Notes under the pieces: generated by a model
What the model was told of the DNA's origin: nothing
Seen by the model: the letters and a program-made list of their open reading frames with translations, nothing else
Database searches by the model: none
Assembly (NCBI RefSeq): GCF_000223395.1
Contig: NC_015931.1
Location: 300,001 to 332,000 of the forward strand
From: Pyrolobus fumarii 1A
GTDB lineage: Archaea > Thermoproteota > Thermoprotei_A > Sulfolobales > Pyrodictiaceae
DNA length: 32,000 nucleotides
Reading direction: 5' to 3'
Shown here: piece by piece, positions 2 to 28,535 of the stretch
Layout: the number at the start of each line of letters is the position of its first letter
Position numbering within the stretch: the stretch's first letter is position 1
Translations under genes and position numbers: made by a program

Positions 2-1168
2 CACGCCGCCGGGACCAACCGCGGTTGGACACCAGACCTGAAACCCGGCACCACCATCACCCTCGAGGAGATCAAACACCTTGAGGAGAGCGGCTGGAGG
101 CTGGTTAGAACCCCGCTCTACAAGGGCGTGTTTCACGACGCGCCTTGCCCGTCCGGCCTCCTGCTAGCCTACAAGCCTGGGCCTCATAACGGCCCTCTAG
201 GGGTCTCGTGGAGGACGGCAGACTGGGTCTACACGACGAGAACAGTAAAGCTGAGCAGCGTCGCCAACGCTACGATCTACTACCGCGCGAGACCCACAGC
301 CACAGTCTACGCCACGAGCATAGCCTACTGCCTCGAGAAGATCAACAACACCGCCTACAGGGTGACAAACTACCTGAAACCAGCATACTACGCAAAGAGC
401 TACACACTAGAGCCACACAGGATAGTCGTCAAGGTGGACCACGAGGCGTTCGAGAAGCTGCTGAGGAGAGAGTGGGTCGAGTCTTACGTGGCTAAGCTTC
501 GGGTTTCTCCAAGGCTCGCCGAGGAGAGTGTTAACGACGTGCGTATCGTTGGCTGGTTTCGCGTGGAGAGGCGCGTCTGCGGGGTCGATGTTGTCGTCGA
601 GGCTCCGAGGCTTAGAGTGGTTTACGGGGATCCCGCCTACACCTACCCCAACAGCTACCTGCGGCACGTCATAGTGTCGTTGGCGAGGTTCATGTGGGAG
701 CTGCGCGTCTGCACACCCGACGAGGCGGTTAAGGCGAGCTACTGGATCATCTACGGCGGCGACGACACCGACCCATATCCGCCAAACTGGTTGATCAATG
801 GCGGTGTATGTTGGCAATGGTCTGAGTGGACATTCAGGGCACTGAGGATGCTAGGCTTGCCAGTCTACCTCCTCTACACCCCCGGTAACCCGCCACACGA
901 GTCTACACTCCTCTGTAGAGAGAGACCAGTGGCCTACCGCGGTTGGTGCTATGGGCTCCTTGCCGTAAACCCGGAGAGTGGGAAGAGGATCATCTGCTGG
1001 CTCTTCGACGACACGGGTTATGTGACAAGCCTTTGGAGGGAGATTGCGAAGATAGGCGCGAGGGTGCATCTAGGCAAGCAGGCATATCCGCCCGAGATAT
1101 ACAGGGTTGTAAAAACATGGGTGGGGTGTAGGATCCCAAGCGACGCTTTCAACGCTACGGCGGGATGA
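2..1168 (+). CDS. hypothetical protein, possibly 5'-truncated by the window edge (minimal ORF 128..1168 from GTG)
   Basis: Frame 2 is open from nt 2, and no ATG/GTG/TTG occurs before the GTG at 128. No family was recognised. It carries a palindrome copy at 15-28 (read as NRGW) and a 1-mismatch copy at 933-946. Confidence 0.5.
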   Translation, partial: HAAGTNRGWTPDLKPGTTITLEEIKHLEESGWRLVRTPLYKGVFHDAPCPSGLLLAYKPGPHNGPLGVSWRTADWVYTTRTVKLSSVANATIYYRARPTATVYATSIAYCLEKINNTAYRVTNYLKPAYYAKSYTLEPHRIVVKVDHEAFEKLLRREWVESYVAKLRVSPRLAEESVNDVRIVGWFRVERRVCGVDVVVEAPRLRVVYGDPAYTYPNSYLRHVIVSLARFMWELRVCTPDEAVKASYWIIYGGDDTDPYPPNWLINGGVCWQWSEWTFRALRMLGLPVYLLYTPGNPPHESTLLCRERPVAYRGWCYGLLAVNPESGKRIICWLFDDTGYVTSLWREIAKIGARVHLGKQAYPPEIYRVVKTWVGCRIPSDAFNATAG

Positions 1169-3404
1169 CCACTATCCTGGCTGTTAGCGGGGTTCTCCAG
1201 ACGCCCAGCTCCTCGTATGGGATCCTGAGCGTCTCGTTGAGCGCCACCACGTGGTATAGGAGTGCTCCGGTAGCAGCATCGTAGATGTACACCTGGCTGC
1301 CTATCGGCACCCCTGTTATCGTCACGTAGGGGTTGCTAGCCACGAGGAGCTTCGCTACCCACGCTGGTATCGGTACCGTTGGCGCTGTCGGCGGGGACTC
1401 GATGTAGAATGTTATGTTGACGGTGTGAGCTCCTGGGGGTAGCACCTCCCTCATTAGCCTCCATGTGAGCGGTGCCCATAGCTTCCTCCTGAACACATCG
1501 TCCACATACACGTAGGGTATCGTCTGTGCTAGTACGTCGGAGCCCCAGGCGCCGGGTACCCTGCCGTAGAAGCCCATCAGGTACGCGTACACTACGCAGC
1601 CCCCGTCGCAGCTCACGTTGAAGATTAGGCCTGCCCTTGGCCACTCTACCCACAGTTTCAGGGCATTGCCGAGGTTCGTGTCCTCGTAGGTTACCAGCGT
1701 GTAATTACCCCAGAGTTGGAGGCCGAGATCCTCGCCTGCGCAGGGTTCCAGCTCGCTCTCGAAGCAGTAGTACGAGATGAGACCCTCCGCCTCCTTCACA
1801 ACCTCATAGTCCGTCGCGTTGATCTTTACAACCCTGATTAAATCGCCGGGCCATAGTGTGCCGGTCCACACGGCTGGCTTCGCGGCCTCCGGTACGAGCT
1901 CCACGCGCCACACGCTAAACGCGTAGAGAGTGTCAATCTGGTTGAATGGCGCCGCTCCAGCCCTGGCTCTGCTGATGTTATACCATAGGCTCACTACTAT
2001 CGGCGAATCGATAGTGAGGTTGACACCGCGGCATATGATGGTTACGTCTGCATCCGCGTCTACCTGACCCGGTTGCAGAGCGTCAGACACCGCCATGATA
2101 CAGCCGCCATACCTGAGCAACGTTGCGTTCGTAGCGCCCGTGAACAGCTCAGGGTTCTCCACGGGGATGATGTCGGCAAGGTCATTATCGAAGAGCAGCT
2201 TGCCGCCTAGGTAGATCCTCAGCCTCAGGGTAGCGTTGAGCAGGAGGGTCTCGGTGTGGTTTGTTGAGGAGCCGTCGGTGAGCGCCTTCTTTGCCGTCAG
2301 GTCTGCGGGGCAGCCGAGCTCCGCACACGGGTCCCTAACCCACAGGTCGATGCGGAGCGTGTAGCGGCCCTCCACAACCCTCGGGTGTATGGTGATGTTG
2401 CAAGCCCCTGCAGTCGCGTTGCAGGTTAAGCCCAGACCGTGATCCCTGTCCACCCAGGGTTTCACCACGCTCCCAGAGTACGCCACGATGCCCTCGGCGG
2501 CGTATCCCCACCAGCCCTGGAGTGTCGAGACGTCGTCGAACGAGAGGATTATGCTCGGACCGGGTTTACTAGGCTGTGGTGTCGGGCTCCTCCCATAGTC
2601 TATGACTATCGTCTTGACCTCGCCGTCCCTGAGCGTCACCCTGTAGGTTCTGTCGACGGTTGTTGAGCCGGATTGTGCCGTGATCTTGACCGTGTACTCG
2701 CCGGGTGCGAGGCCACACAGCTTCAGGTACCCTGGGTCATTGGAGACTAGCTCCGCTGGCCACTGGGATGCGCCACGCTCGATCCTAACACTTAGGATGT
2801 TTGCAGGGGTTCCCTCAACCCAAGCGTCTACCTCTATGCAGCCCGGCTTGCCCAGTATCCTGAGGACTTGTGTCCCGTGGATGGTGGCTACGTACACCGC
2901 GATGGTCGTGTTGGGGTTGTGGTATAGCATTGGGAGGATTATCGGCTCGGTTGTCTCGATTGTGATGTAGCCTCCCGGCTTGACGACGGGGTAGCCGTCG
3001 CTGCTCCACTCCGGGGCCTCCACCCTCAGCTCCTGTGGGATATCGCCGAGTGCTCCTGGCGCCTTCCACTCCTGGCTCCAGAGCCATAGTGGCGGGTATC
3101 GAGAGTTATCCTCGAGGGCGACCGCCAGGTAGACTATCTTGGCTCCGAAGCGCCCCACGTTCTGCAGTGTGACCCTGAGCCTAGCCCTGTACTCGTCGAC
3201 GGGGATCCACTCGTAGTCGACGAGTTTGAACTGGGTCTGGAGCTGCCTCTCTGCGATAAGCTTCTCCTCGGCGATCCTCAGCTGCGCCTGGAGCCCCTGC
3301 AGCTGGATCGAGTAGACGGCCACCTGGGCGAAGAGGATGATCGCCATGAGGGCGACGACGGCCGGCAGCACCGTCTGGCCCCGCAGCCTCCCCCACGCCA
3401 CCAC
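1155..3404 (-). CDS. large (749 aa) secreted/surface protein with a type IV pilin-like (class III) N-terminus
   Basis: The N-terminus is MVAWGRLRGQ/TVLPAVVALMAIILFAQVAVY, a basic-Gly-Gln segment followed by a hydrophobic helix. The protein has many N-x-S/T sequons and a beta-rich Y/W/T/V composition. The 14-mer GCCACTGCGGGGCC lies 25 nt upstream of the GTG start. Confidence 0.6.
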   Translation of the reverse strand: MVAWGRLRGQTVLPAVVALMAIILFAQVAVYSIQLQGLQAQLRIAEEKLIAERQLQTQFKLVDYEWIPVDEYRARLRVTLQNVGRFGAKIVYLAVALEDNSRYPPLWLWSQEWKAPGALGDIPQELRVEAPEWSSDGYPVVKPGGYITIETTEPIILPMLYHNPNTTIAVYVATIHGTQVLRILGKPGCIEVDAWVEGTPANILSVRIERGASQWPAELVSNDPGYLKLCGLAPGEYTVKITAQSGSTTVDRTYRVTLRDGEVKTIVIDYGRSPTPQPSKPGPSIILSFDDVSTLQGWWGYAAEGIVAYSGSVVKPWVDRDHGLGLTCNATAGACNITIHPRVVEGRYTLRIDLWVRDPCAELGCPADLTAKKALTDGSSTNHTETLLLNATLRLRIYLGGKLLFDNDLADIIPVENPELFTGATNATLLRYGGCIMAVSDALQPGQVDADADVTIICRGVNLTIDSPIVVSLWYNISRARAGAAPFNQIDTLYAFSVWRVELVPEAAKPAVWTGTLWPGDLIRVVKINATDYEVVKEAEGLISYYCFESELEPCAGEDLGLQLWGNYTLVTYEDTNLGNALKLWVEWPRAGLIFNVSCDGGCVVYAYLMGFYGRVPGAWGSDVLAQTIPYVYVDDVFRRKLWAPLTWRLMREVLPPGAHTVNITFYIESPPTAPTVPIPAWVAKLLVASNPYVTITGVPIGSQVYIYDAATGALLYHVVALNETLRIPYEELGVWRTPLTARIVVIPP

Positions 3405-3429
3405 CCGCCACCCTCCACCCCTCCCCCAG

Positions 3430-3443
3430 GGCCCCGCAGTGGC
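3430..3443 (-). promoter_or_regulatory. motif-2 copy (minus strand GCCACTGCGGGGCC) upstream of the 749-aa gene
   Basis: Exact 12-mer CCCCGCAGTGGC (plus strand) is shared with 8053, 10903 and 21305. A 25-nt gap separates it from the start codon at 3404. Confidence 0.5.
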
Positions 3444-3487
3444 CGGGTCCCGGGGAGCCCCTCCACACGGACACCATCCCGGCGCGG

Positions 3488-3828
3488 GTGCAACCGCGGT
3501 TGCACGGGTAGACTATCGTCGAGGCGTTATCACGCCACGGGTACTATACGCGGAGCCGAGTCAACCGCGGTTGGAGCGAGACAAGAGTCTATGGAGTCCG
3601 GCTACGCCTGGAGGGTCTCGGGGCGCCGGCTCCAACCGCGGTTGTAGCCACTCACGGTACGCCAGTTCGCCCGGGGAGGGAGAGGGGCGAGCGAATGTAC
3701 TCCATGCGTAGCAGCCATGGACGGGGCCCGTATCCCGGTGGCGCCATCAGGGTAACACCATGCGAACGAATGTTCGGCCTCCACGGGCGAGCTCCGAGCA
3801 CTCGTTCACCAGTCTTAACCGCGGTTGG
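3488..3828. repeat. cluster A of AACCGCGGTT palindromes (4 copies) in a 468-nt non-coding gap
   Basis: Copies are GTGCAACCGCGGTTGCAC at 3488-3505 (18-bp perfect palindrome), tCAACCGCGGTTGG at 3561-3574, CCAACCGCGGTTGt at 3632-3645 and ttAACCGCGGTTGG at 3815-3828. Core starts are 3492, 3563 and 3634 (71-nt steps), then 3817. Confidence 0.85.
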
Positions 3829-3872
3829 ACGCCTGTATAGGAGAGGGCCGGGTGTTGTGCGGGGGTGCTGGT

Positions 3873-4567: not shown

Positions 4568-4583
4568 CCGGGCTGGAGGGGTC

Positions 4584-8091: not shown

Positions 8092-8796
8092 CTAAGGCGG
8101 CAGTAGGGCGAGTGCATCCTCGAGAGCCGCCGCACAAGCCTCCATACCACGCTTGCCCGTCCTCCCTCTCAACGGAGACCAACCGAACCTTACTCCCGCG
8201 ACACACGAGGTGAGTATGTAACCGTCTGCTCCAACCGCAGTTGGGTTGGAGGTTCTCACCATCACCCTGAACCCGAGCTTCCCGAGCCTCGCGGTGAACC
8301 TCACTACTCTACCCAACTCCTCCCTCAGGTCGAAAGACGCGTTGTAATAGACGGTGTCGTAGCCGGCCTCGAGGTAGGCCAGGTAGGCTCCGGTGCACCG
8401 GCAGGGCTTCACGACAGGCATGCATGTGAGACCCGCATCCTCCGCAACCCTACAGAACTCGAGGTTAACCTCCACGAGGCGGTGCGCGGGGCCACACGGG
8501 TCCTCGGTTCGCAGCGTCAGGTCGGGACCGGTTACCAGGGTGAACCCTAGCCCAGCTGCCCTCTCCACGAGCATCCTAGCGTCGGGCAGGATAGCCTCTA
8601 GGACATCATCACGGCTTGTCAGCTCGAGGAGGGCCTCCCTGCTCCACCCTACCCTCTCCAGGGACCCGATGCTCCACGTCACCCTGTCCACGGGGACTGC
8701 GAGCCCCAGCCCGCGAGGCTCTCCGAGGAGCCTCCACCACCATGTCGAGCGCTCACGGAGCCTAGCCTCGGCGAACACCCCCACTGCTGGCCCCAT
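8092..8796 (-). CDS. hypothetical protein
   Basis: This 234-aa ORF matches no recognised family. It contains the 1-mismatch palindrome CCAACCGCaGTTGG at 8231-8244. The start is uncertain, lying only 14 nt from the divergent gene at 8811. Confidence 0.4.
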   Translation of the reverse strand: MGPAVGVFAEARLRERSTWWWRLLGEPRGLGLAVPVDRVTWSIGSLERVGWSREALLELTSRDDVLEAILPDARMLVERAAGLGFTLVTGPDLTLRTEDPCGPAHRLVEVNLEFCRVAEDAGLTCMPVVKPCRCTGAYLAYLEAGYDTVYYNASFDLREELGRVVRFTARLGKLGFRVMVRTSNPTAVGADGYILTSCVAGVRFGWSPLRGRTGKRGMEACAAALEDALALLPP

Positions 8797-12714: not shown

Positions 12715-12902
12715 TTGTGGGCCCCAAGTTCATTGCATGTAGAGACTCACTGGGTGCGGGCACGGTTTGGAGTGCTTCGCGATGAACACCAGTCACGTGA
12801 ACATCTCGTGCTGCTCTATGCTCGTGTTTACCCCTCCCGGCCCTCCCGCGTTAAATAATCTTCGATTTCTTTATTAGGATGTGCGGGGGCGCGCGCAGTA
12901 GC

Positions 12903-17856: not shown

Positions 17857-17880
17857 TCTAGATCCCGGGTTGTAACGAGG

Positions 17881-19515: not shown

Positions 19516-19763
19516 GCCGTCACCCAGTGGTAGGGTTGTGCGTGTGCAGTGACTGCGGATGTTCTGGTCTTCTCACTCTCCAGGTTTTCGAGTAGTAGTG
19601 CAACAGCCGAGCCTACGAGCAGACCAAGTGCGCCGCCAAGCGCTGCACCAGTTACACGGCCTAGTGCATAACCCAGAGTTATGCCTGCAAGTGTCGTAGC
19701 AGCTATCATTGCTAGCTTCGGGTCGCTTGTCCTAAGGTATAGTTCATATAACATGTTCATCAT
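19512..19763 (-). CDS. small Gly-rich 2-TM membrane protein (CedA2/VirB2-like candidate)
   Basis: The sequence begins MMNMLYELYLRTSDPKLAMIAATTLAGITLGYALGRVTGAALGGALGLLVGSAVALLL. The ATG at 19763 was chosen because the ORF-track extension overlaps the upstream gene. A hairpin abuts the start. Confidence 0.5.
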   Translation of the reverse strand: MMNMLYELYLRTSDPKLAMIAATTLAGITLGYALGRVTGAALGGALGLLVGSAVALLLENLESEKTRTSAVTAHAQPYHWVTA

Positions 19764-19783
19764 CCCCCGAAAGTATTCGGGGG
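19764..19783 (-). other. perfect stem-loop CCCCCGAA-AGTA-TTCGGGGG abutting the start codon
   Basis: An 8-bp G/C-rich stem with a 4-nt loop fills most of the 29-nt gap between the stop at 19793-19795 and the ATG at 19763. Confidence 0.7.
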
Positions 19784-19792
19784 CGTAATACG

Positions 19793-20968
19793 TTAATATT
19801 CCTGCTGCTGGTGTGTGAAAGCGTGCCAAGGTATCCCTAGGGTCTCGTCGACGACCCGCTTGTAGTATCTCCTTGTTTGAAGTTTCCACAACGTATGTTT
19901 GTAAGCATGTTGTAGAATGTAACCTAGGCCGCCTAGCGGGTATGTTGGCTCTCTTATCGCATGTATCAGACCCCGGGTGAACCCGACTATCCTCGAGGCT
20001 ATTCCGCCTGTGGGTGTCGTGACCGGCCATGGTAGTGGGCTTCGGACGAGTTCTGGGGCTGCTGCCAGGTGTGGCACGATCTGTCTGATTGTCTTTGCCG
20101 CTGCGGGGCCAGCCACATAGCCTAGGAACATGCTTGTCAGGGCCATTGTCGTGGAGGCTCTAGGAGCTAGGATGCTGGCGATGACTGGGGCGAAGAAGCT
20201 GGCTGCTATCATCATGAGTGTGAGGCCGGCCTCGTAGACGCCGCTGGGGTCCCAGTGGGTTATGAGTTCGGACCCCAGCCTGTACACCGCAGATGCCAAC
20301 AGAGGCACGAAGAGCAGGCCGGTGAGGGTTGACACCGCCCCATGGGCCACGTCCCGCACGTACCTGGCGGGAGCGAGCGTCAGGGCTAACCATAGTGGGA
20401 GTGTCGCTGCTAACACCGCTGTAAGCATCAAGCGGAGCGCGTTGAACATCCCGAGGAAGATCATGATGGAGAAGAAGGCTGTGAGGACTGCTGGAGCCCC
20501 GAGCAGCGTCGCACCGCCTATGACTGCCGCCGCGCCCTCGGTGACCTTCGCGAGGTAGACGTCCTCGGGGTTGCCCGAGAAGAGGGTGTAGGACCCCCAC
20601 GCGACGAGAGCAGCCGCCCCGTCGTAGACGTGCTTCGAGAGGAGGATGGCTAAGAGGACTAGGAGCGAGCGTTTCAACACAGTGCCCAGCTCCACCCTAT
20701 CCTCATAGAGGTATTCCAGAAGCGCGAGGAGGGTCATGAAGGTGTAGGCCAGGATGCCTAGCAGCAGGGAGGTGTCGTACACCGCGTTCATGGCGGGCGC
20801 GAGGTCGTGGAAGACGCGGGGCGCGTCGCGAGTATAGACGTCGAAACCGGGGACGGCAAGGCTAAGCTCGATGACAGGCTTCACGGTAAACTCGGCGATG
20901 AAACGCGCGACAGGATCGATAAGCGTCTTGAAAAGCTCGTTAAGCGCGTCGAATATCGGGTTTCCCAT
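19793..20968 (-). CDS. polytopic membrane protein, VirB6/TrbL/CedA-like candidate
   Basis: It is 391 aa with many TM helices, flanked on both sides by small 2-TM genes as in cedA1-cedA-cedA2. The assignment rests on architecture and context, not on a recognised motif. Confidence 0.5.
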   Translation of the reverse strand: MGNPIFDALNELFKTLIDPVARFIAEFTVKPVIELSLAVPGFDVYTRDAPRVFHDLAPAMNAVYDTSLLLGILAYTFMTLLALLEYLYEDRVELGTVLKRSLLVLLAILLSKHVYDGAAALVAWGSYTLFSGNPEDVYLAKVTEGAAAVIGGATLLGAPAVLTAFFSIMIFLGMFNALRLMLTAVLAATLPLWLALTLAPARYVRDVAHGAVSTLTGLLFVPLLASAVYRLGSELITHWDPSGVYEAGLTLMMIAASFFAPVIASILAPRASTTMALTSMFLGYVAGPAAAKTIRQIVPHLAAAPELVRSPLPWPVTTPTGGIASRIVGFTRGLIHAIREPTYPLGGLGYILQHAYKHTLWKLQTRRYYKRVVDETLGIPWHAFTHQQQEY

Positions 20969-20987
20969 AGCCCGTACACCTCTACCC

Positions 20988-21275
20988 TCACTCGGCGGTG
21001 ACTAGGCGCAGCACATTCACCGCGATGACCATCCCCGCTATCGCCGAGACTATCCACTGGACCCAGCGGAGCAGAGTCACCATCATGTCGCCGAGCGTCC
21101 TCCCGCTCGGCAGCTGTACCTTCGCAACGTCGGGCTGCTGGCTGTAGATGCCCCAGCCTAGGAAGCTCCTCGCGAAGAAGTCGATTGCATAGGGGAGGAT
21201 CCACACGAGGATCAACACAAAAACAGCGACCATCAACTGCTTCTTGGCTCGTGCAGCCTCGAACGGGTCCGGCAC
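20988..21275 (-). CDS. small 2-TM protein (VirB2/CedA1-like pilin candidate)
   Basis: Two hydrophobic helices are present (LMVAVFVLILVWILPYAIDFF and MMVTLLRWVQWIVSAIAGMVIAV). GTG 21275 was chosen because motif-2 lies 27 nt upstream of it. The alternatives are ATG 21377, which adds a 34-aa hydrophilic leader and overlaps the upstream gene, or ATG 21233. Confidence 0.4.
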   Translation of the reverse strand: MPDPFEAARAKKQLMVAVFVLILVWILPYAIDFFARSFLGWGIYSQQPDVAKVQLPSGRTLGDMMVTLLRWVQWIVSAIAGMVIAVNVLRLVTAE

Positions 21276-21302
21276 GGATCCCGCACCCAGGAGTGTGGCG
21301 GG

Positions 21303-21316
21303 GACCCCGCAGTGGC
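21303..21316 (-). promoter_or_regulatory. motif-2 copy (minus strand GCCACTGCGGGGTC)
   Basis: The exact 12-mer core lies 27 nt upstream of the GTG at 21275. Confidence 0.45.
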
Positions 21317-21357
21317 GTGAGGCGGTTGTCGAGAGGTGTTCAGGGTGGTGGCATGTG

Positions 21358-21795
21358 TTAACCGCGGTTGCCGGCAACGCTGGCGACCTTGCACCTCATT
21401 TCTCCCACAACCCCTCCCAAGATCATGGCAGACGTGGAAAGCGCGGCGCTTACGGGGTCTACCGCGGGTCTAACACCGAACAAGCTCAGGGTGAGCGTGG
21501 CTAACACGACAACCGTGAAGTACGGCACAGCTATGGAGATGGCCCCTCGAAGACCGTGTCTAAACCCCTCCGTGAATGACTCCACCAGACCCACGAGCAC
21601 CAGGGTCACGCTAAACGCGGCGAGTAGAGGTACGTTTATCAGAGGCTGGGCGTTGACACCTAGCGTGCGAAGCCAGGCCATAAAAGCCGTCTCAGCTGCG
21701 TGTATCGCCCTGAGGCCCATCTGTAAAAAGCTGTGCAAGACATCCTCGAGGGCCATCTCGACTATAATGAAGGGATTGTGAGACATGCGCACCAC
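21358..21795 (-). CDS. membrane protein (3-4 TM), first gene of the Ced-like block
   Basis: It is 145 aa with several hydrophobic segments. The start is GTG 21795 or ATG 21786. The stop codon lies inside the palindrome ttAACCGCGGTTGc (21358-21371). Confidence 0.5.
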   Translation of the reverse strand: MVRMSHNPFIIVEMALEDVLHSFLQMGLRAIHAAETAFMAWLRTLGVNAQPLINVPLLAAFSVTLVLVGLVESFTEGFRHGLRGAISIAVPYFTVVVLATLTLSLFGVRPAVDPVSAALSTSAMILGGVVGEMRCKVASVAGNRG

Positions 21796-21968: not shown

Positions 21969-22493
21969 TCAGCAGCTCCTCAGCTGGGCTAGTACCGCAG
22001 CGGCGCGTAGGAGGTCGGAGCGCGTGAGGCCTAGCGCCTTTGCCCTCTCGTCAACCTCCTCGTCGAGCTCCGCCGGGAGCTTTACAGACCTGATGGTGGG
22101 CGCCTTGCAGCGTAGAGCCTCCATGCTCAGCTTGTTCACCGTATCGGCGTCCATCTCGAGCACCTTGCGTAGGGCCTCTCGTAGAGGCCCGGACCCGGGG
22201 AAGATGCACGTCTTGAACGTGGTCACTACGCTCCTGGCTCTACGCTCCACCCCCGCTCCCGCCGCCGGGGGTACCAGCTTGACGCGCGAGCCGCGGGAGC
22301 AGAGATAGGCGAGCATCCTGTGACACTCGTCGCTGAAACGCGACGAGTGTACAAGCGCGCCGGCCACACCCCGGAGGGGGCGGCCACAGCAAGGACACGC
22401 GTTGAACACGTGCACCTTCTTGACGTGCCTCTTGAGGCTGGATAGTTGCTTGTAGCTGCGCCCGCAGAACGGACACACGTACAACCCTACCAC
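21969..22493 (-). CDS. C2H2 zinc-finger / ribbon-helix-helix (CopG-like) fusion DNA-binding protein
   Basis: The N-terminal YVCPFCGRSYKQLSSLKRHVKKVH is a classic C2H2 finger, and CPCCG...H follows. The C-terminal RSVKLPAELDEEVDERAKALGLTRSDLLRAAAVLA is RHH-like. Confidence 0.6.
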   Translation of the reverse strand: MVGLYVCPFCGRSYKQLSSLKRHVKKVHVFNACPCCGRPLRGVAGALVHSSRFSDECHRMLAYLCSRGSRVKLVPPAAGAGVERRARSVVTTFKTCIFPGSGPLREALRKVLEMDADTVNKLSMEALRCKAPTIRSVKLPAELDEEVDERAKALGLTRSDLLRAAAVLAQLRSC

Positions 22494-22768
22494 CCCGCTA
22501 TCGCCGCGAGCCTCTCAAGCCTCCTGAGGAGGAGCCCACCGAGCCTCTCCCCGCGCAGCCTCACGACGCCACCCCTCTCCTCCAGCAGCCCGGCCGCAGC
22601 GAGAACCTCGATCTCCTCCCGCACGCCGCGCCCACCACCAGCGATTATGACATTGCGCTTCTCCCTGACGCGCCTCACAGCAGCCTCGATATCCTCCACC
22701 CTAGCCTCGCCACCGTTAGCCGCCAGGTAGCCCAGGAGAAAGTCACGGAGGAACACCACCCTCCTCAC
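22487..22768 (-). CDS. small winged-helix-like DNA-binding protein (tentative)
   Basis: It is 93 aa. FLLGYLAANGGEARVEDIEAAV...LAAAGLLEERGGVVRL resembles a wHTH layout. It overlaps both neighbouring genes. Confidence 0.4.
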   Translation of the reverse strand: MRRVVFLRDFLLGYLAANGGEARVEDIEAAVRRVREKRNVIIAGGGRGVREEIEVLAAAGLLEERGGVVRLRGERLGGLLLRRLERLAAIAGW

Positions 22769-23199: not shown

Positions 23200-24156
23200 T
23201 TGACCGCGGTTGGCGCCGAGCAGCCTAGGCCCGCGCCCGACGAGTACCTGGACTCCCTCCGGGCGGCGGGGAGGCGCGACTGGATACCCGAGGAGTGTAG
23301 CGTCGACGGCGACCTCGTCACCTGCCCGCGTGAGGCTCTCCGTCGTCTACTCCTCGCGGCGGCCGTGGCGATCTTCAAGCAGAGGCTACTCGAGAGGGCT
23401 CTGCGCGAACACGAAGACCTCTACGAGAGGCTCCGCGAGAAGCTGGAGGCCGTCGAGGCGGAGGTCGGGTGGCTGGAGGAGGAGCTTGCGGGGCTCGAGA
23501 GGCTTGTTGGGAGTCTCCTCGGGCTCCAGCCGCGCGTCGAGGAGCTTCTCAGGGAGGTGGGGGAGGCGAGGAGGGAGGCTGCTCGGCTCCTCGAGAGGGT
23601 CGGGAGGTGGACATCGGTATGGGAGTGTAGCTACTCGATCCCGCACCCGGAGACGATCCGTCGCAGGTGTAGGCGTAACCGAAGGCTCTGCATCCTCGCG
23701 GATAGGGTGCAGCGCGCTAAGGCCGAGTGGTACGATTTCCTGTGGAGCCTCCCCGTCCTCGAGCTGGGCGAGGGCCGTGTCCTCCTCTTCAGGGAGGTTG
23801 ACGCCCGGCGCCTGGAGGAAGTATGGAGGCGGCTCTTCGACGGGATAGTCGAGGGGCTGAGGAGGGAGGGGTACCGCACTCGCGCATCCTGCACGTGCAT
23901 CAAGCGCCTCGTGGCGCCCGAGCAGCTGGTCAGGGATGTTGAGGCTGAGGCGGAGAGGCTCCGCGGCGAGATAGAGAGGCTCGTCGCGAGGTCCGCGGAG
24001 CTGGCGAGGATGGGCCGGTCCGCCTCGAGTATCCTCCGCCGCGCAGAGAAGCTCCGAGAGAGGCTGGCGCAGCTAGAGCAGATCCTCCGCGAGCTCCGCG
24101 AGAAGCTGCCTCGAGACGCTCGCGCTAAGGCCCCAACCGCGGTTGCACGGGGGTGA
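23200..24156 (+). CDS. coiled-coil protein, first gene of the DpdA-like operon
   Basis: It has long heptad-like E/R/L-rich stretches. TTG 23200 was chosen because the ORF-track start at 23029 lies inside the divergent gene. The start is uncertain. Palindrome copies lie at its start (23200-23213, right half only) and 10 nt before its stop (24133-24146). Confidence 0.45.
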   Translation: MTAVGAEQPRPAPDEYLDSLRAAGRRDWIPEECSVDGDLVTCPREALRRLLLAAAVAIFKQRLLERALREHEDLYERLREKLEAVEAEVGWLEEELAGLERLVGSLLGLQPRVEELLREVGEARREAARLLERVGRWTSVWECSYSIPHPETIRRRCRRNRRLCILADRVQRAKAEWYDFLWSLPVLELGEGRVLLFREVDARRLEEVWRRLFDGIVEGLRREGYRTRASCTCIKRLVAPEQLVRDVEAEAERLRGEIERLVARSAELARMGRSASSILRRAEKLRERLAQLEQILRELREKLPRDARAKAPTAVARG

Positions 24157-24162: not shown

Positions 24163-25080
24163 GTGCTCAGGGTATTCCTCGTGTCAGTGCATGAAACTAA
24201 CGCGCTGAGGGAGGCTCTAGAGACCCTGGCGAGGCTGGACCGGGAGCTGAGCCGCTGCTGCGGCGTTAGGATTGGCTTGTTGGCGAACTGGCTCAAGTGG
24301 CGGTATAGGCTCGAGTGGCTGGTGGCCGCGAAGAGACGCTACGGGCTCATAGTCTACGTTGATAGTGGCGGCTTTCAGGGTAGGGTGGAGCCAGAGGAGT
24401 ACGCGGGGTGGCTGTGCCGCTACTGGCGGCTGGTGGATGTCGTCTTCGCGCCCGACGACCCCGTCCTCCTCTGCGGGGATCCTCTCGACGAGCAGTGTAG
24501 ACGGCGGAAGATCTGGAGGACTATGGCACTGGCCGTGGAGTTCGCCCAGCTGGTCACCGAGAGGTGCCCGGGTGCCCTGCAGAGGCTCTCGTTGACGCTC
24601 CAGGGCTTGACGCCAGACGAGTACATGGAGTGCTACCAGGGCATCATTGACATGCTCGGGAGCGTGGGCGTCGAAGCCTCGGACTTGAATCCTCTCATCA
24701 CGCTGGGCTCCCTGAAGCTACGCTCGTGGAGGTCTCGCGTCGCGGGGCTACGCGGCACGATAGCCGAGGTTGTGAGCGAGATCAACCTGAAGCCTCTACA
24801 CCTCCTCGGGGTGCACGGCAGGGACCTCCACAAGGTGCTGAACAACGCCAACGTCCACAGCGCTGACACCGGCGCCCAGGGCCTCAACTACATCCTCAAA
24901 CACCGTGATGTGCTCGGATGTGAGAGGCTGGGCCCGGAGTGCTACGCGAGAGCAGTGGAACGCGAAGTCTTCTCGAGTCTCGAGCCTCTCCTCAAGCTCT
25001 CCAAGCTCCGTACCCTCGACAAGTTCATCCCAACCGCGGTCGAGAGGGTGGCTGGCAGTGCAGAGGCTCAGGGTGCCTAA
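24163..25080 (+). CDS. TGT-superfamily transglycosylase, DpdA-like (or the TGT-like half of a split ArcS)
   Basis: IVYVDSGGFQG matches the TGT/DpdA catalytic DSGGFQ motif. Further TGT-like blocks are VFAPDDP, LTLQGLTPDEY, LHLLGV and VHSADTGA. At 305 aa it is short, and no CxCxxC...H zinc site or PUA domain was seen. Confidence 0.6.
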   Translation: MLRVFLVSVHETNALREALETLARLDRELSRCCGVRIGLLANWLKWRYRLEWLVAAKRRYGLIVYVDSGGFQGRVEPEEYAGWLCRYWRLVDVVFAPDDPVLLCGDPLDEQCRRRKIWRTMALAVEFAQLVTERCPGALQRLSLTLQGLTPDEYMECYQGIIDMLGSVGVEASDLNPLITLGSLKLRSWRSRVAGLRGTIAEVVSEINLKPLHLLGVHGRDLHKVLNNANVHSADTGAQGLNYILKHRDVLGCERLGPECYARAVEREVFSSLEPLLKLSKLRTLDKFIPTAVERVAGSAEAQGA

Positions 25081-26026
25081 GGATCGGCTCGGAAGGTTCC
25101 CTGCTAGACACCATCTGGGTATAGACCCTCAGCTTACGGGCATCAGAGCGTTAGAGCATCGTGCGGTGCGAGAGTGGCACCATTGGCTGGCTGACAGGTG
25201 GCTCCCCGAGTGGCCGGTCCTGCTCATCACGCCGTGCAGCAACGTGAAGCCCTACACGCGCTCCCCGACCTCGAGGAAGATCGCCGCGGTGCTCCGGAGG
25301 CTGGGGCTGTGGCGCGGCGGGGCCCCCTTCGGCGTAGAGTGGCTCTACCTCTCGGATCTACTGGTTCTCGTGCCCTACGTACGCGCGGGTGAGTACCCGG
25401 CGTGCTGCTACGAGCTACACCCCGAGGAACTGTTGAAAGACAGGGAGCGTTACGAGCTGATTGTGGGGCTCCTCTCAGACCTGATAGCCCGCAAGCTCTG
25501 GCCGCACACAGTCATCCTATTCCTGCCGAGGAGGCACCTCGAGTTGTGGAGCGAGGCCTACTCGAGGGCGAGGCTCAAGCCACGGGTTGTACGGGTAGCC
25601 TACACTATCTTCTCGGTGAGGGGCCTCGAGGAGGCTGTTAGAGCGGCGGTCGTCGAGGCTGCTCGTGCAACCCGTGCCGTGCTAGAGAGGGGTCTCGGGG
25701 ATGATACCTGCTCTATGGCTGTGCATCGTGCTGACGGCTCGTACATCGAGATCCGCCACCCTAGCGACTGCAGCGGAGAGTGGTGTAGACAGGACGCTCG
25801 TTTCGCCGAAACCTGCCTAGAGTCCCTGTGCAGGCGGCTCTGGCTCGTCGATAGGTTCGCCGGCCCCCTGGATCCCGGGAGGCTACCGGATCGCATCCGC
25901 AGCTTCTGCGTCGAGAGGGGCTACCTCCCGGCCCACGCGCCCCGCCAGGTGAGCCTAGACGAGATCCTCCCGGGCAACCCCGCCCAACCGCGGTTGGAAC
26001 AGCCTCGCAACGCTCATAGGGGGTGA
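25073..26026 (+). CDS. ArcS-like DUF5591 domain protein
   Basis: ITPCSNVKPYTRSPTSR fits the ArcS signature PC-x3-KPY-x2-S-x2-H, with the final H replaced by S. GTG 25073 overlaps the upstream stop by 8 nt. The ORF-track start at 24905 would overlap the upstream gene by 176 nt. Confidence 0.55.
   Translation: MPKDRLGRFPARHHLGIDPQLTGIRALEHRAVREWHHWLADRWLPEWPVLLITPCSNVKPYTRSPTSRKIAAVLRRLGLWRGGAPFGVEWLYLSDLLVLVPYVRAGEYPACCYELHPEELLKDRERYELIVGLLSDLIARKLWPHTVILFLPRRHLELWSEAYSRARLKPRVVRVAYTIFSVRGLEEAVRAAVVEAARATRAVLERGLGDDTCSMAVHRADGSYIEIRHPSDCSGEWCRQDARFAETCLESLCRRLWLVDRFAGPLDPGRLPDRIRSFCVERGYLPAHAPRQVSLDEILPGNPAQPRLEQPRNAHRG
25984..25997. repeat. perfect CCAACCGCGGTTGG copy 26-39 nt upstream of the wHTH gene start
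   Basis: It is an exact 14-mer lying inside the 3' end of the ArcS-like gene, where it is read as QPRL. Confidence 0.85.
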
Positions 26027-26712
26027 GGGGCGTGGCTGGGAGGAGGGTAGTGGAGGCTGCCGTTCCAACCGCGGTTGTACCGGGGAGGCCCAGATCCCAG
26101 AGGGTGGCGCTACTACTAGACCACCTGCTCGCGAAGGGCGAGGAAGGGGCCCTCGCCCACGAGCTCAGCCTGGTGGCCGGCATCCCATCCCGTCAGGTCT
26201 ACCCGTACCTAAGGTGGTGGGTCCAGAAGCGAGTGGTAGAGGTCTCGAAGGCCGGCTGGCTCAACGTCTACCGGCTCAGCCGTAGGGTCCGGAGGGCCCT
26301 CGAGGAGCTTCTAAGGCTCTTGTTCAGGTCTAGGGAGCTGCGTCTGGCTCGCCTCGCTCAGAGGCTCGCGGAGCACCGTCTCATGAGGAGACTGTCGCTC
26401 ATAGAGGCGGAGGTTGTGGCGTTGCTCGCGGAGCGTCTCCTCTCGGGCAGCCCCTACCTGAGGATAAGGGCGGAGTCTAGGTTCCACGCCCTCGACGTGC
26501 TCCGCGTGAAGCTCGAGGCTAGGCTGCGTAGGCTCGGCCTAAGCCCCGAGCAGGTAGCCACACAACTACAACTACTGGGGGAGGCGCTGGAGGAGCTCAC
26601 CGAGGCCGGGGTGATCTACACCCACTGGGACGCCCGCAGCCACACCCTGGTGCTCAGACTCGACCGGAGCATCGAGGAGGAACTCCGGCGACTAGGAGAA
26701 CCACGAGGCTAA
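26023..26712 (+). CDS. double winged-helix DNA-binding protein
   Basis: RVALLLDHLLAKGEEGALAHELSLVAGIPSRQVYPYLRWWVQKRVVEVSKAGWLNVYRLS is MarR/wHTH-like. A second wH-like unit is present (SLIEAEVVALLAERLLSG...LTEAGVIYTHWDARSHTLVLRL). The GTG start overlaps the upstream stop (GTGA). Confidence 0.55.
   Translation: MRGVAGRRVVEAAVPTAVVPGRPRSQRVALLLDHLLAKGEEGALAHELSLVAGIPSRQVYPYLRWWVQKRVVEVSKAGWLNVYRLSRRVRRALEELLRLLFRSRELRLARLAQRLAEHRLMRRLSLIEAEVVALLAERLLSGSPYLRIRAESRFHALDVLRVKLEARLRRLGLSPEQVATQLQLLGEALEELTEAGVIYTHWDARSHTLVLRLDRSIEEELRRLGEPRG
26065..26078. repeat. CCAACCGCGGTTGt copy 43-56 nt inside the wHTH gene
   Basis: The 10-nt core is perfect and is read as PTAV. Together with 25984-25997 it brackets the start codon at 26023. 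Confidence 0.85.
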
Positions 26713-26777
26713 AACCACCCCCGCTTCCACTGGAGCACCTGGAGAACCCCCTACTCCTCTCTACTATCCTAACTACT

Positions 26778-27222
26778 CCAACCGCGGTCGAATCCCCCGC
26801 TTAACCGCGGTTAAACCCCGGTTCCAACCGCGGTTGGAAACAAACTCCCCCACATCAAGAGCCCCGAGCACAACAAGACACCCAAGACACTCTTACCCAC
26901 GAGTACCTCCCCACGCACCGGGGTCTGGTTTAACCGCGGTTAGACTCGGGTTCCAACCGCGGTTGGGGTGGACCGAAAGTACCGGACACCCCTCCGGACA
27001 GGAAGATATTCTAGAACAACCATGACACGCTATCTTGTTATATACCATTTTACGGGCTAAACTCGGGCTGAAGAGAAGCTAAACTCGCGGGGATCATCAC
27101 GCGGTGCATAGAGACTTAGGTTTCAACCGCGGTTGGAACCCGGGATTCGGGCCCGGGAAGCGACCAGGGAGGCGCAAACAAGTAGTTGTGGTAGTCGAGG
27201 GGTTCGCCCCAACCGCGGTTGG
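26778..27222. repeat. cluster B of AACCGCGGTT palindromes (7 copies) in a 570-nt non-coding hub with an A/T-rich core
   Basis: 14-mers start at 26778 (core 1 mismatch), 26801 (TTAACCGCGGTTAA), 26824 (TTCCAACCGCGGTTGGAA), 26930, 26953, 27123 and 27209. Three spacings are 23 nt. The 37-nt composite unit 26801-26837 is repeated at 26930-26966 (34/37 identical). The A/T-rich stretch at about 27001-27060 has 22/60 G+C by hand count. Confidence 0.85.
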
Positions 27223-27282
27223 ATGCGGGCGGGGCTAGGCGAGACACTGCTCTAGTCAACATCCCTTTGAGCAGCCCTGGGT

Positions 27283-27987: not shown

Positions 27988-28478
27988 GCCTCGAGGATCC
28001 TCTCGGCTATCTCGCTCTTCTTGGCGTACTCGGGGTACGCGCTGTACACGTAGCGGAGGAGCTCGAAGGGCTTATCGGCCCACAGGCGGACCAGCCTCTC
28101 CATCTGCTCGAGGAAGTGGGGCTCCTCCCTCCTCAGCCTCTCCACTATCTCCTCGTAGAGCCTCCTCCCCTCCCCGGTCAGCTCGAAGACGTAGACGGTG
28201 TATGCTCCTCCATGAGAGGGCTCGGTGTGCACCCTCACCAGGCCCCGCCTCCTCGCCTCGTCGACGCCCCTCGCCAGCTCCGCGGAGACCGGGCCGTAAC
28301 GGGTGGGTGTGTACCCCAGGCAGCAGCCGCCCGCCTCAACGACGCCCAGGAACCCGAGCTTCTGGAGAACCGTGCCGCCACGCAGCCGCCCGCCGGCGAG
28401 CCCCACGAGCAGCACAACCCACTCGACGGGCGATAGCCTGGCCACACATCCCCCCGTAGAGGCGGGGGGTACCAGCAT
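27984..28478 (-). CDS. hypothetical protein (weak YwgA/SocA-Panacea-like N-terminal pattern)
   Basis: It is 164 aa. GTVLQKLGFLG...YTPTRYGPVSAELARGVDEARRRGLV loosely resembles the T.LQKL..Y..YGP pattern. The assignment is tentative. Confidence 0.35.
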   Translation of the reverse strand: MLVPPASTGGCVARLSPVEWVVLLVGLAGGRLRGGTVLQKLGFLGVVEAGGCCLGYTPTRYGPVSAELARGVDEARRRGLVRVHTEPSHGGAYTVYVFELTGEGRRLYEEIVERLRREEPHFLEQMERLVRLWADKPFELLRYVYSAYPEYAKKSEIAERILEA

Positions 28479-28521
28479 ACAGGGTTATAGCCGGAGATGG
28501 CGAGCTGTGCCGGCTATGCGT

Positions 28522-28535
28522 CTAACCGCGGTTGG
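28522..28535. repeat. last palindrome copy ctAACCGCGGTTGG
   Basis: It sits in the 58-nt gap between the stop at 28537 and the start at 28478. No further copy was seen up to nt 32000. Confidence 0.85.

Follow-up and report, generated by a model that had tools for sequence, protein, structure and literature searches.

Among described systems, the KorB/KorA network of plasmid RK2 offers an analogue of the operator- or centromere-like set of sites proposed here. The clt/TRS repeats read by TraB of Streptomyces and the KOPS read by FtsK provide the model for a second kind of site, the DNA-transfer signal; KOPS or TRS have a polarity, whereas a perfect palindrome carries none. Archaeal conjugative elements are without a relaxase, and for that reason a model of dsDNA translocation is open for them (PMC9905601). 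In Salmonella, DpdA modifies DNA within CAG/CTG, with CxGCxG as the minimal motif and about 1 modification per 1000 nt (PMC10164549).

The locus analysed here (the window, a stretch of 32,000 nucleotides) is a type IV secretion (conjugation-like) island of Pyrolobus fumarii 1A adjoining tRNA-Ser, and it carries many copies of the palindrome AACCGCGGTT. With a probability of roughly 0.6, we consider this palindrome to be the site of an element-encoded dimeric DNA-binding protein that controls the island genes and builds a complex on an array of sites. A docking site of an island-encoded protein is the most likely explanation because the copies are mostly between genes and occupy the same spots in related islands. 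AACCGCGGTT would then be the invariant core of a site of about 20 bp, and its reader a dimeric protein with sequence specificity whose gene belongs to a family of integrated elements of conjugation type in the Pyrodictiaceae. Single sites are found at the edges of most of the island's transcription units, ahead of gene starts, on them or a little way inside, so that one protein could keep secretion, pilus, modification and regulator genes under joint control.

Number and shape of the sites

An exact scan of the window found 21 copies of AACCGCGGTT, at positions identical to those listed in the initial annotation, against an expectation of 0.02. Dinucleotide shuffles had a mean of 0.02 copies and a maximum of 1, and Markov models of order 1-4 predicted 0.015-0.17 copies. 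When one mismatch was allowed, the total was 28 against 0.78 expected; six of the seven one-mismatch copies had been reported earlier, and the one at 26814 (AACCCCGGTT) had been omitted. The seven full 14-mers (CCAACCGCGGTTGG) were found again on rescanning, as were the long perfect palindromes described before, except that the one at 13949 measures 20 bp (13944-13963) and not 18 bp.

The palindrome is the core of a dyad-symmetric site of about 20 bp with the consensus GkTCC-AACCGCGGTT-GGAmC. Over 42 half-sites the dyad information reaches position 10 on either side, with G at position 6 in 35, G at position 7 in 26, A at position 8 in 28 and C at position 10 in 24 of them. To judge from its sequence the dyad is the footprint of a dimer, and we infer that a protein binds it. 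A form of the site with intact core is GGTTCCAACCGCGGTTGGAACC.

Placement relative to genes

Twelve of the 21 exact copies are clearly intergenic and the copy at 17 is ambiguous, although only about 9% of the DNA is intergenic (binomial P about 3e-9 for 13 of 21). Five further copies are less than 50 nt from a gene start or stop, and three are deep in genes. The placement at gene junctions described in the initial annotation is thus borne out, and so is its statement on reading frames: within genes the copies yield (P)TAV(G), NRG(W) or QPR(L), with three phases and both strands represented.

At the left window edge, the site at 17..26, a 14-mer CCAACCGCGGTTGG, is 4 codons 5' of a stop in one frame and within an open frame in another. 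Four exact sites are in an ORF-free gap (3405..3872) upstream of a minus-strand gene for a 749-aa protein and downstream of a PIN toxin gene. Three of them, all intergenic, are spaced exactly 71 bp apart (3492..3501, within an 18-bp perfect palindrome at 3488-3505; 3563..3572; 3634..3643), and their flanks have no tandem duplication; the fourth (3817..3826) is intergenic, 52 nt beyond the PIN gene stop. One-mismatch copies occur within genes at 935..944 (TACCGCGGTT) and 8233..8242 (AACCGCAGTT).

The conjugation-type module (10422..21786, minus strand) contains six exact sites. Its products are VirB4-like, TFB-like (a label that goes back only to a weak N-terminal match), CarboxypepD_reg, YdjM, T2SSF-like, VirB11/T2SSE-like, pilin-like and, by synteny, VirB6/TrbL-like. 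The first site (12920..12929) lies in the stretch from the stop of the TFB-like gene to the VirB4 gene; the perfect palindrome around it is 22 bp long (12914-12935), and a TATA-like box follows about 51 bp downstream. The next, at 13949..13958 and read NRGW, falls on the TFB-like gene's codons 6-9, and the one at 14352..14361 is read TAVG in a gene for a 204-aa protein. In the gene for an 837-aa T2SSF-like membrane protein one exact site is deep inside (16822..16831), another is about 196 nt from the start (17656..17665), and a one-mismatch copy (GACCGCGGTT, 17824..17833) is 28 nt into the gene. The sixth exact site (21360..21369) is on the stop codon of a 142-aa gene, with the pilin-like gene 90 nt further downstream.

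To the right of the module, a second one-mismatch copy of the form GACCGCGGTT (23202..23211) occupies the divergent region between a 119-aa gene (minus) and a 375-aa coiled-coil gene (plus). The final codons of the latter contain an exact site (24135..24144), 24 nt upstream of the start of a DpdA-like ORF. This ORF (24163-25080) and an ArcS-like DUF5591 ORF (24905-26026, the true start probably being later) overlap on the plus strand (24163..26026), both with weak matches; a one-mismatch copy (AACCGCGGTC, 25032..25041) is close to the DpdA-like gene end. An exact 14-mer site (25986..25995) follows in the final codons of the gene preceding the winged-helix gene Pyrfu_0361, and another exact site (26067..26076) is just within the 5' end of Pyrfu_0361 itself. 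The final copy before the right end of the island (28524..28533) occupies the 58-nt space that separates two minus-strand genes and is some 50 nt upstream of a 164-aa gene.

As many copies stand directly past stop codons, the palindromes could be thought to act in RNA, as hairpins terminating or stabilising transcripts at gene ends; the site at 12920 is moreover within a long imperfect hairpin (12901-12948), and in four copies the perfect palindrome extends over 18-22 bp. We find this very improbable. P. fumarii grows at around 106 C, and the predicted folding energy at 100 C was 0.0 kcal/mol for all 21 sites taken with 12-nt flanks. The conserved part is the core of 10-20 bp only, and the core alone gives a stem of 3-5 bp. 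No T-tracts follow the sites, none of the sites was among the terminator-like matches of a consensus scan, and eight copies are in tandem within an ORF-free region.

Related elements and chromosomal DNA

Two related element contigs from one Pyrodictiaceae MAG, L181 and L304, have the motif at orthologous positions with diverged flanks. In L181, with a VirB4 69% identical to that of the window, each of the three copies has its orthologue among the window sites (14352, 13949 and 12920); 30 of 30 bases are identical at these sites, and the intergenic flanks of the third have diverged. L304 encodes a winged-helix protein 78% identical to Pyrfu_0361, the gene being followed by an ORF-free array as in the window, and shares five orthologous sites. 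An additional L304 copy falls within the winged-helix gene, a place without a copy in P. fumarii. Contig L309, with a more closely related secretion module (83%), has no motif: its VirB4 gene is without the upstream site, though the neighbouring promoter block is retained. By sequence comparison, sites turn over between elements. A 3.4-kb Pyrolobus MAG contig (L153) has three copies in and around an unrelated gene for a 1100-aa HerA/FtsK-type ATPase.

The last finding bears on the reading of the copies as DNA-transfer signals, recognised by a conjugation ATPase and marking element DNA for export or import. The L153 ATPase has, by eye, a winged-helix-like stretch near its C-terminus, and three of the four motif-bearing sequences (the window, L181 and L304) are pieces of a VirB4/VirB6/VirB11-type element. 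This reading is nevertheless improbable: its model sites have a polarity that the palindrome lacks, the sites cluster at the edges of genes and keep fixed distances from a promoter-like core, the window has no FtsK-like ATPase with a winged helix, and the closer secretion-module relative does without the motif.

Element DNA (the window island, L181, L304 and L153) contained 32 exact copies in about 43 kb, whereas chromosomal DNA (window 29.0-32 kb, L302, L310 and L305; some 46 kb from relatives and 3 kb of host flank within the window) contained none in about 50 kb. L302 is from the same MAG as L181 and L304, and no exact copy was found in 20.6 kb of chromosomal DNA from that MAG with its motif-rich element contigs. 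The earlier remark that the last 3.5 kb of the window are free of the motif is true, and extends to the sampled chromosomal DNA of relatives. These counts weigh against a genome-wide or self-propagating repeat that is not specific to the island, be it HIP1-like, a DUS/USS-like uptake sequence or REP/MITE-like. In its favour are the occurrence of the motif in other Pyrodictiaceae contigs (L153, L181 and L304) and the sampling of the P. fumarii chromosome only through the 3 kb of host flank. When a genome collection was scanned with the 16-mer TCCAACCGCGGTTGGA, no stretch of P. fumarii came up, not even that with the window's own three copies; if the window alone is lacking from that collection, the remainder of the genome is free of this 16-mer. 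A mobile repeat unit is ruled out because the flanks of the window copies are mutually unrelated, and we give a dispersed repeat of any kind very little chance.

The initial annotation had taken the palindromes as an operator or centromere-like site set of the island. The 20-bp dyad, the clustering at gene boundaries and in two ORF-free regions, the orthologous conservation, the absence from sampled chromosomal DNA and the winged-helix gene adjoining the main cluster all favour this; the restriction to this one island does not hold, as the motif occurs in related elements of other Pyrodictiaceae and is missing from L309.

The control region

Just downstream of the double winged-helix gene Pyrfu_0361 is an ORF-free control region (26713..27282) with six exact and two one-mismatch sites. 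It has two units of site pairs 23 bp apart (26803/26826 and 26932/26955). A one-mismatch copy (AACCGCGGTC, 26780..26789) is 23 bp ahead of the exact site at 26803..26812 (TTAACCGCGGTTAA; its L304 orthologue is exact) and belongs to the 23-bp tandem unit, the other one-mismatch copy being at 26814..26823. The site at 26826..26835 is within an 18-bp palindrome and has one mismatch in L304, and the one at 26932..26941 opens the second pair.

The region contains a conserved core (26975..27115), about 80% identical to L304, in which the TATA-like GTTATATACC (at 27037) is accompanied by two copies of GCTAAACTCG; this core may serve as promoter, as origin or in both roles. Three sites are at conserved distances from the centre of the TATA-like box, namely 26955..26964 (82 bp upstream, equal in L304), 27125..27134 (88 bp downstream, 85 bp in L304) and 27211..27220 (174 bp downstream in both), the last being 68 nt upstream of a 234-aa gene. 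Several sites in the island are 50-80 bp upstream of TATA-like boxes and not on them, the operator-to-promoter geometry being inferred from these boxes. On the six exact and two near-exact sites flanking the core the protein could assemble a larger nucleoprotein complex, serving as a master promoter switch, as a replication origin or centromere, or as both. The centromere or origin part is without support from partner genes, because neither ParA/ParB nor a Rep protein was identified among the products of the window.

Possible DNA modification and candidate binding proteins

A target of modification had been named earlier as another option, and the weak DpdA-like and ArcS-like genes immediately upstream lend it some support. 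A DNA modification encoded by the element would then use the palindrome as its target or address and turn guanine in the CCGCGG core into a 7-deazaguanine derivative; the DpdA-like transglycosylase and the ArcS-like enzyme would carry out this replacement, and the winged-helix protein might serve as specificity factor. The 305-aa DpdA-like protein has VDSGGFQ and is modelled as a confident TIM barrel (pLDDT 88.5), Pfam DpdA is matched by 3 of 12 family members (E 2.4e-4), and the 373-aa neighbour matches DUF5591 and, weakly, ArcS (E 0.003). L304 keeps the order DpdA-like gene, ArcS-like gene, winged-helix gene and site array. CCGCGG also fits the CxGCxG of Salmonella DpdA (PMC10164549), and the exact-site density here is 0.74 per kb. 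However, both assignments are far below family cut-offs, a profile search of PDB sequences found no DpdA, and in the fold search generic TIM barrels rank first, although the TGT-family QTRT2 has the highest query TM-score (0.53). Outside the motif CCGCGG occurs about as often as predicted (18 copies against 14-21), with neither enrichment nor avoidance, and modification leaves unexplained the 20-bp dyad, the roughly 1000-fold over-representation, the intergenic bias and the fixed distances from the core. We regard it as unlikely, if less so than the other alternatives; it is compatible with the operator explanation and not exclusive of it.

For the operator explanation, the candidate reader is Pyrfu_0361 (26032..26712, plus strand; a GTG at 26050 may be the actual start), encoded immediately upstream of the array. 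Two winged-helix domains are seen in its model (pLDDT 84.6); the N-terminal domain is most similar to the pNOB8 centromere binder AspA (25-28% identity, rmsd 2.8 A) and to ArsR/SmtB repressors. Sites 25986 and 26067 bracket the start of the gene, 81 bp centre to centre; no such bracketing is seen in L304. At least three further island proteins could plausibly bind DNA: a C2H2 zinc-finger and ribbon-helix-helix protein (21969..22493, minus strand), a 93-aa protein (22487..22768, minus strand) that is winged-helix-like by eye only and has no family match, and the 164-aa protein. Adjacency, the modelled fold and a two-point covariation make Pyrfu_0361 the best candidate. In its chromosomal paralogues the recognition helix differs, and the DNA from the TATA-like box to the start of these genes contains another palindrome, CCTGT(NN)ACAGG.

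Recurrence and anatomy of the palindrome

The 10-mer AACCGCGGTT is a real and strongly selected motif, specific to the mobile element in every available sample and conserved in position. The initial annotation had counted 21 exact copies, and an exact scan returned the same 21 coordinates. Under Markov models of order 1-4, with the motif masked or unmasked, 0.015-0.17 copies would be expected, and dinucleotide-preserving shuffles contained 0.02 copies on average and never more than one. Six one-mismatch copies had also been listed and all of them are present, but the list was incomplete, as a seventh starts at 26814. Exact and one-mismatch copies in the window together amount to 28 against 0.78 expected. 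The seven copies of the 14-mer CCAACCGCGGTTGG were recovered as well, and the perfect palindromes of 18-22 bp exist, except that the one at 13949 had been given as 18 bp and extends over 20 bp.

When each exact copy was split in two and positions were numbered outward from the dyad, the resulting 42 half-sites were conserved well past the 10-mer, with G at position 6 in 35, G at position 7 in 26, A at position 8 in 28 and C at position 10 in 24 of the 42. The functional unit is therefore likely to be a dyad of ~20 bp, GkTCC-AACCGCGGTT-GGAmC. Beyond this unit the flanks of the copies are unrelated, and the sole tandem repeat is a 23-bp unit at 26776-26835, which indicates that the copies are not a mobile repeat. 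A REP- or MITE-like element was rejected on the same grounds, the shared unit being only ~20 bp. Avoidance or enrichment of SacII restriction sites was likewise rejected, since CCGCGG is about as frequent outside the motif as expected (18 observed, 14-21 expected). The copies inside genes span three codon phases on both strands and are read as (P)TAV(G), NRG(W) or QPR(L), in agreement with the multi-frame reading proposed earlier. In the searchable literature the 10-mer was met only in primers, and neither the motif nor the P. fumarii island was found described.

A palindrome of this kind could also act in RNA, as a hairpin or an intrinsic terminator. This is unlikely, as P. fumarii grows above 100 °C and the predicted folding energy at 100 °C was 0.0 kcal/mol for 21/21 sites with 12-nt flanks; terminator-like matches were found at none of the sites.

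Placement of the sites in the island

The copies had been described as lying at gene junctions, and this is borne out. With generous (maximal) ORF calls the intergenic fraction of the island is 9%, and 12 of the 21 exact copies are clearly intergenic while site 17 is ambiguous (binomial P ~3e-9 for 13). Only three copies (14352, 16822 and 17656) are located deep within genes; a further five exact copies lie at most 50 nt from the start or stop of a gene, and most copies are within ~100 nt of a gene start. Two ORF-free clusters stand out: 3405-3872 with four sites, three of them exactly 71 bp apart, and 26713-27282 with eight (six exact, two near-exact), among them two composite units in which the sites are 23 bp apart. 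Spacings of 23, 71, 81 and 86 bp showed no consistent helical phasing. An operator or centromere-like function, one of the roles suggested in the initial annotation, is the best supported reading of the site set, and we give it a probability of about 0.6.

Recognition of the palindrome beside a TATA box by the TFB-like protein of the island, similar to a BRE, was considered and rejected, as no TATA-like box is consistently adjacent to the sites. It is further weakened by the limited likeness of the protein (12981-13973, minus strand) to TFB, which is confined to ~45 N-terminal residues matching TFIIB (NCBIfam E 4.7e-5, PDB 1pft E 0.01). The protein is without the zinc-ribbon cysteines and had no cyclin-domain match, and the TFB-like label is weak.

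Site 12920 lies within a long imperfect inverted repeat (12901-12948, CTCTGCATGCACGGTTCCAACCG / CGGTTGGAACCAGTGCAGAG), which is far longer than elsewhere.

Related elements and chromosomal DNA

Three other Pyrodictiaceae contigs carry the 10-mer. Two belong to the same metagenome-assembled genome (GCA_053988995.1): L181, whose VirB4 is 69% identical to that of the window and whose three copies are orthologous to 14352, 13949 and 12920, and L304, whose winged-helix protein is 78% identical and which carries eight copies in 4.8 kb, five of them exact and three with one mismatch. Around the intergenic copy of L181 the core and a few adjacent blocks are kept, and the remaining spacer has diverged. 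Distances from the sites to TATA-like boxes, predicted from sequence, are conserved in both contigs. The third, L153, is a 3.4-kb contig of a Pyrolobus sp. metagenome-assembled genome with three copies in and around the gene of a 1100-aa HerA/FtsK-type ATPase. L153 alone suggests a transfer signal read by an FtsK-like ATPase, and the palindromic, promoter-linked pattern of the sites fits such a signal poorly.

Chromosomal DNA gave a different picture. L302 (20.6 kb of housekeeping genes from the same assembly as L181 and L304) had no exact copy and one one-mismatch copy, and there were no copies in L310 (21.8 kb from a sister genome, partly orthologous to L302), in the contigs L305-L308 or in the 3 kb of host DNA within the window. 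In total, 32 exact copies were found in ~43 kb of element DNA and none in ~50 kb of chromosomal DNA (~46 kb from relatives and the 3 kb host flank), where ~37 would be expected at the density of the elements. This contradicts the possibility that the motif is a genome-wide word. Such words are known: HIP1 (GCGATCGC) of cyanobacteria and DUS/USS are short, over-represented by orders of magnitude and read in several frames within genes, and DUS often form inverted pairs at gene ends, which makes the likeness apparent. However, HIP1 and DUS/USS occur genome-wide at ~1 per kb of chromosome, while the island motif is absent from all sampled chromosomal DNA and tracks the mobile element.

Scans of wider collections added little. 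The 16-mer TCCAACCGCGGTTGGA gave 115 single chance matches in bacteria and one archaeal contig, L153, in the genome collection; no P. fumarii stretch was returned, the window's own three copies included. If only the window is masked in this collection, the remaining 1.8 Mb of the genome would be without the 16-mer. The 14-mer gave 55 single chance matches in the viral collection, and profiles of the winged-helix and VirB4 proteins gave nothing useful against viral contigs. Two cores 53-83 nt apart were found at at least 120 metagenome loci; among those listed, none shares any protein with the window and several are CRISPR-like arrays whose repeat happens to include the 10-mer. Four metagenome contigs of ~1 kb (L213, L229, L230 and L272) each contain AACCGCGGTT 14-21 times in regularly spaced CRISPR-like arrays of unrelated organisms, without proteins of the window.

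Secretion genes of this kind do not by themselves imply the motif. L309, from the same assembly as another sampled contig, encodes a VirB4 83% identical to that of the window and has no copy in 3.8 kb; upstream of its VirB4 gene the block GCTTGCAATCCTACTGC and a TATA box are kept, without the palindrome that P. fumarii and L181 have ahead of both. Sites have also turned over between P. fumarii and L304, as L304 has a copy inside its winged-helix gene that is absent in P. fumarii, and some P. fumarii copies are missing from L304. The sites behave as a regulatory layer that is gained and lost, like the sites of transcription factors.

In three elements VirB4 is preceded by the conserved block (GCTTGCAATCCTACTGC, in P. 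fumarii GTGCATGCAGAGCTACTGC) and, after the block, by a TATA-like box, whether or not the palindrome is there (window ~12880-12905, L181 ~1440-1465, L309 ~1228-1246). The block probably represents the VirB4 promoter core or a second regulatory site. We also considered that each lineage might have its own hyper-abundant palindrome, which is not supported, as the more distant relatives L177-L180 (VirB4 52-53% identical, GC 50%) have neither the motif nor an equivalent private palindrome. After the VirB4 block, L178 (5150-5390) and L179 (10410-10650) carry an intergenic repeat array (TGCATGCAGCAATCGAAGGAAT and variants), a different repeat system in an equivalent kind of element.

The ORF-free control region

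The ORF-free region downstream of the winged-helix gene (26713-27282 in the window) is common to P. fumarii and L304, with a core of ~140 bp that is ~80% identical. Within the conserved core lie a TATA-like box, GTTATA(T/C), and the sequence GCTAAACTYG in two copies, and palindromes flank the core. Measured from the centre of the TATA-like box, which in the window starts at 27037, the site centres are at -257, -234, -223, -211, -105, -82, +88 and +174 in P. fumarii and at -189, -165, -82, +85 and +174 in L304, so that three site-to-box distances are conserved. This geometry would fit a promoter or an origin around which a nucleoprotein complex is assembled. The region has a repeat array and a relatively AT-rich conserved core; an iteron-type replication origin would also be expected to lie next to an initiator (Rep) gene, and among the genes of the window none was recognised as Rep, primase or helicase.

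Candidate binding proteins

A candidate reader of the sites is encoded directly upstream of the array. The winged-helix protein of the window (26032-26712, plus strand) is Pyrfu_0361 of P. fumarii 1A, with the sites 25986 and 26067 on either side of its start; in L304 the start of the corresponding gene is not bracketed by sites. A sequence search of the PDB gave no significant match. The AlphaFold2 model (pLDDT 84.6) has two winged-helix domains linked by a long helix, a layout that in fold search recalls ScpB, and the N-terminal domain matches AspA (5k5q, 4rs8) with probability 1.0, 25-28% identity and a Foldseek E-value of ~3e-3, the match to ArsR/SmtB being about equal.

The family of this protein is also chromosomal, with members beside a semialdehyde dehydrogenase gene. 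These have the recognition helix SKQVYPLLQWW or SNAVYPLLKWW, compared to SRQVYPYLRWW in Pyrfu_0361, and they carry a different 12-bp palindrome, CCTGT(NN)ACAGG, between the TATA-like box and the start (with GC or AT in the centre; L302 ~9895-9915, L305 ~3070-3090). The covariation of protein and palindrome is small and suggestive. The palindrome that the chromosomal paralogues have in this position suggests that the whole family may autoregulate through palindromes. Drawn from gene position, sequence and a predicted structure, Pyrfu_0361 as the binding protein is a lead and not a result. Other possible readers are the zinc-finger/RHH protein (21969-22493), a 93-aa protein (22487-22768) and a 164-aa protein. 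The last (27984-28478, minus strand) is preceded by site 28524 and matches the PADLOC candidate defence family PDC-M19A (E 1.3e-6); it had no significant match in a sequence search of the PDB.

Possible modification of the sites

The palindrome may alternatively be a target of 7-deazaguanine DNA modification, possibly alongside protein binding; a modification target had also been proposed initially. Upstream of Pyrfu_0361, two overlapping ORFs (24163-26026, plus strand) encode proteins of 305 and 373 aa that could form a DNA-modification pair, and L304 keeps their order as well as their synteny with the site array and the gene of the winged-helix protein. The 305-aa protein has the sequence VDSGGFQ and a confident TIM-barrel model. 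Its family is tiny (14 representatives among 1.8 billion proteins), and 3 of 12 relatives weakly match Pfam DpdA (PF23859, E 2.4e-4), while the protein itself had no Pfam match. Fold search placed generic TIM barrels first, with the TGT-family protein QTRT2 having the best query TM-score, and a profile search of the PDB gave neither DpdA nor any other significant match. The 373-aa protein contains DUF5591, weak matches to archaeosine synthase (ArcS) and the motif PCSNVKPYTRS; it had no significant match in a sequence search of the PDB.

In Salmonella, DpdA exchanges guanine within CAG/CTG; its minimal motif is CxGCxG, and roughly one site is found per kb (PMC10164549). The CCGCGG core of the island palindrome fits CxGCxG. 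The Dpd system (DpdA/DpdB/DpdC) has a TGT-like enzyme encoded on a mobile island, as may be the case here, and its target lies within a short palindromic hexamer at ~1 site per kb (PMC10164549). The two differ in that the homology to DpdA is marginal here and the motif is much longer and positionally biased, and neither DpdB nor DpdC was recognised on the island. Modification alone would also leave the 20-bp dyad, its over-representation and its placement unexplained. Given the DpdA-like and ArcS-like neighbours, a crenarchaeal mobile element might nevertheless carry 7-deazaguanine modifications in its DNA. In its fullest form, the palindrome would be the address label of an element-encoded 7-deazaguanine module, in which the winged-helix protein reads the dyad and the DpdA-like and ArcS-like enzymes exchange the guanines of CCGCGG. 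We regard this as a long shot; if true, an archaeal conjugative element would bear hypermodified bases at specific sites along its gene boundaries, serving as an epigenetic switch or as a self-mark in transfer.

Comparison with known operator networks

For an operator or centromere-like site set, the closest functional analogue appears to be the KorB/KorA network of the IncP-1 plasmid RK2/RP4. There, as in the island, one short palindrome (OB for KorB, OA for KorA) is repeated many times over a conjugative element. In RK2 the copies are adjacent to promoters, tens to hundreds of bp upstream or far away, and operator-bound protein of the element jointly controls genes of replication, transfer and maintenance. 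RK2 has 12 OB copies on 60 kb, and the site density of the island is ~3-4 times that of RK2. KorB is a global repressor and a centromere binder with promoter-proximal and distal operators on a conjugative plasmid, OB being 16 bp long and its distance upstream of promoters either 4-10 bp or 45 to >1000 bp (PMC11790492). The island is best seen as an analogue and not as a member of this system, since there is no homology and the defining ParB-family protein is absent. Its window contains no ParB/CTPase or KorA-like protein (among 42 ORFs scanned, none had a Pfam match to ParB, KorA or ParA), and the host transcribes with archaeal TBP/TFB.

Within archaea, two systems would be nearest in kind, again judged by analogy: AspA, which has one palindromic centromere, and the origin region of Sulfolobus plasmids, which is rich in repeats. 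AspA of pNOB8 is a dimeric winged-helix protein that binds a 23-bp palindrome upstream of its own gene and spreads from there (PMC5120986). The likeness to the island lies in the crenarchaeal conjugative element and in the N-terminal domain of Pyrfu_0361, which resembles AspA in structure about as closely as it does ArsR/SmtB proteins. In contrast, AspA is a protein of ~90 aa with one nucleation site and the partners ParB and ParA, while on the island the protein has two domains and 226 aa, the 21 sites are dispersed, and parB and parA are absent from the window. Section B of the Sulfolobus conjugative plasmids is ORF-free, has characteristic repeats and is a putative replication origin (PMC4390865), and the region 26713-27282 is comparable as an ORF-free stretch packed with short repeats. 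The repeats of section B are, however, mostly direct and limited to a single region, while copies of the island palindrome are spread over the entire element as well.

Hyperthermophilic archaea have conjugation-type elements that have hardly been studied, their control included, and none of the species is genetically tractable (PMC9905601). The site set offers a complete and precisely mapped candidate regulon: ~28 sites sharing a 20-bp consensus, together with a conserved control region and a few candidate binders. If confirmed, it would be an independently evolved archaeal counterpart to the networks of global operators by which RK2 and other conjugative plasmids of bacteria are controlled. 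Related elements in the genomes of Pyrodictiaceae would then also be recognisable, in practice, by the motif.

The island and its boundaries

The island encodes two ATPases (VirB4/HerA-like and VirB11/T2SSE-like), an 837-aa T2SSF-like membrane protein and a pilin-like protein, together with YdjM, CarboxypepD_reg, a zinc-finger/RHH protein and toxin-antitoxin genes. The VirB4-like protein is identical to 'VirB4 family type IV secretion system protein [Pyrolobus fumarii]'. The toxin-antitoxin cluster (3873-4985, minus strand) comprises a PIN-domain toxin (3873-4316), an AF2212-like protein (4313-4681) and a TumE toxin (4584-4985). The gene order of the secretion system is repeated in metagenomic relatives, with a TrbL/VirB6-like protein and in one case an integrase, which indicates that the island is a member of a family of conjugation-type integrated elements. 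In kind, this family is akin to the machinery that has been discussed for Ced/Ted and the archaeal conjugative plasmids (PMC9905601); no description of it as a family of archaeal integrative conjugation-type elements was found in the searchable literature. The order common to the window (10422-21786) and to L177, L178-L180, L181 and L309, contigs of uncultured thermophiles, is TrbL/VirB6-like, VirB11/T2SSE-like, T2SSF-like, YdjM, CarboxypepD_reg, the TFB-like protein of ~300 aa and VirB4.

The island probably extends past the left edge of the window, because a site is found already at position 17. Its right end is near 28,985 and is followed by tRNA-Ser (29392-29479), thi4 and pdxS. Just beyond the last island gene, a fragment at 28988-29012 resembles the 3' end of a tRNA (minus strand, TTCGAATCCCCGCGGGCCCGCCA). 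It is not a copy of the neighbouring tRNA-Ser, and it may be the att remnant of the present or an older integration. A stretch of lower GC content (29040-29390) follows this fragment and contains an AbrB-like ORF on the minus strand (29047-29367).
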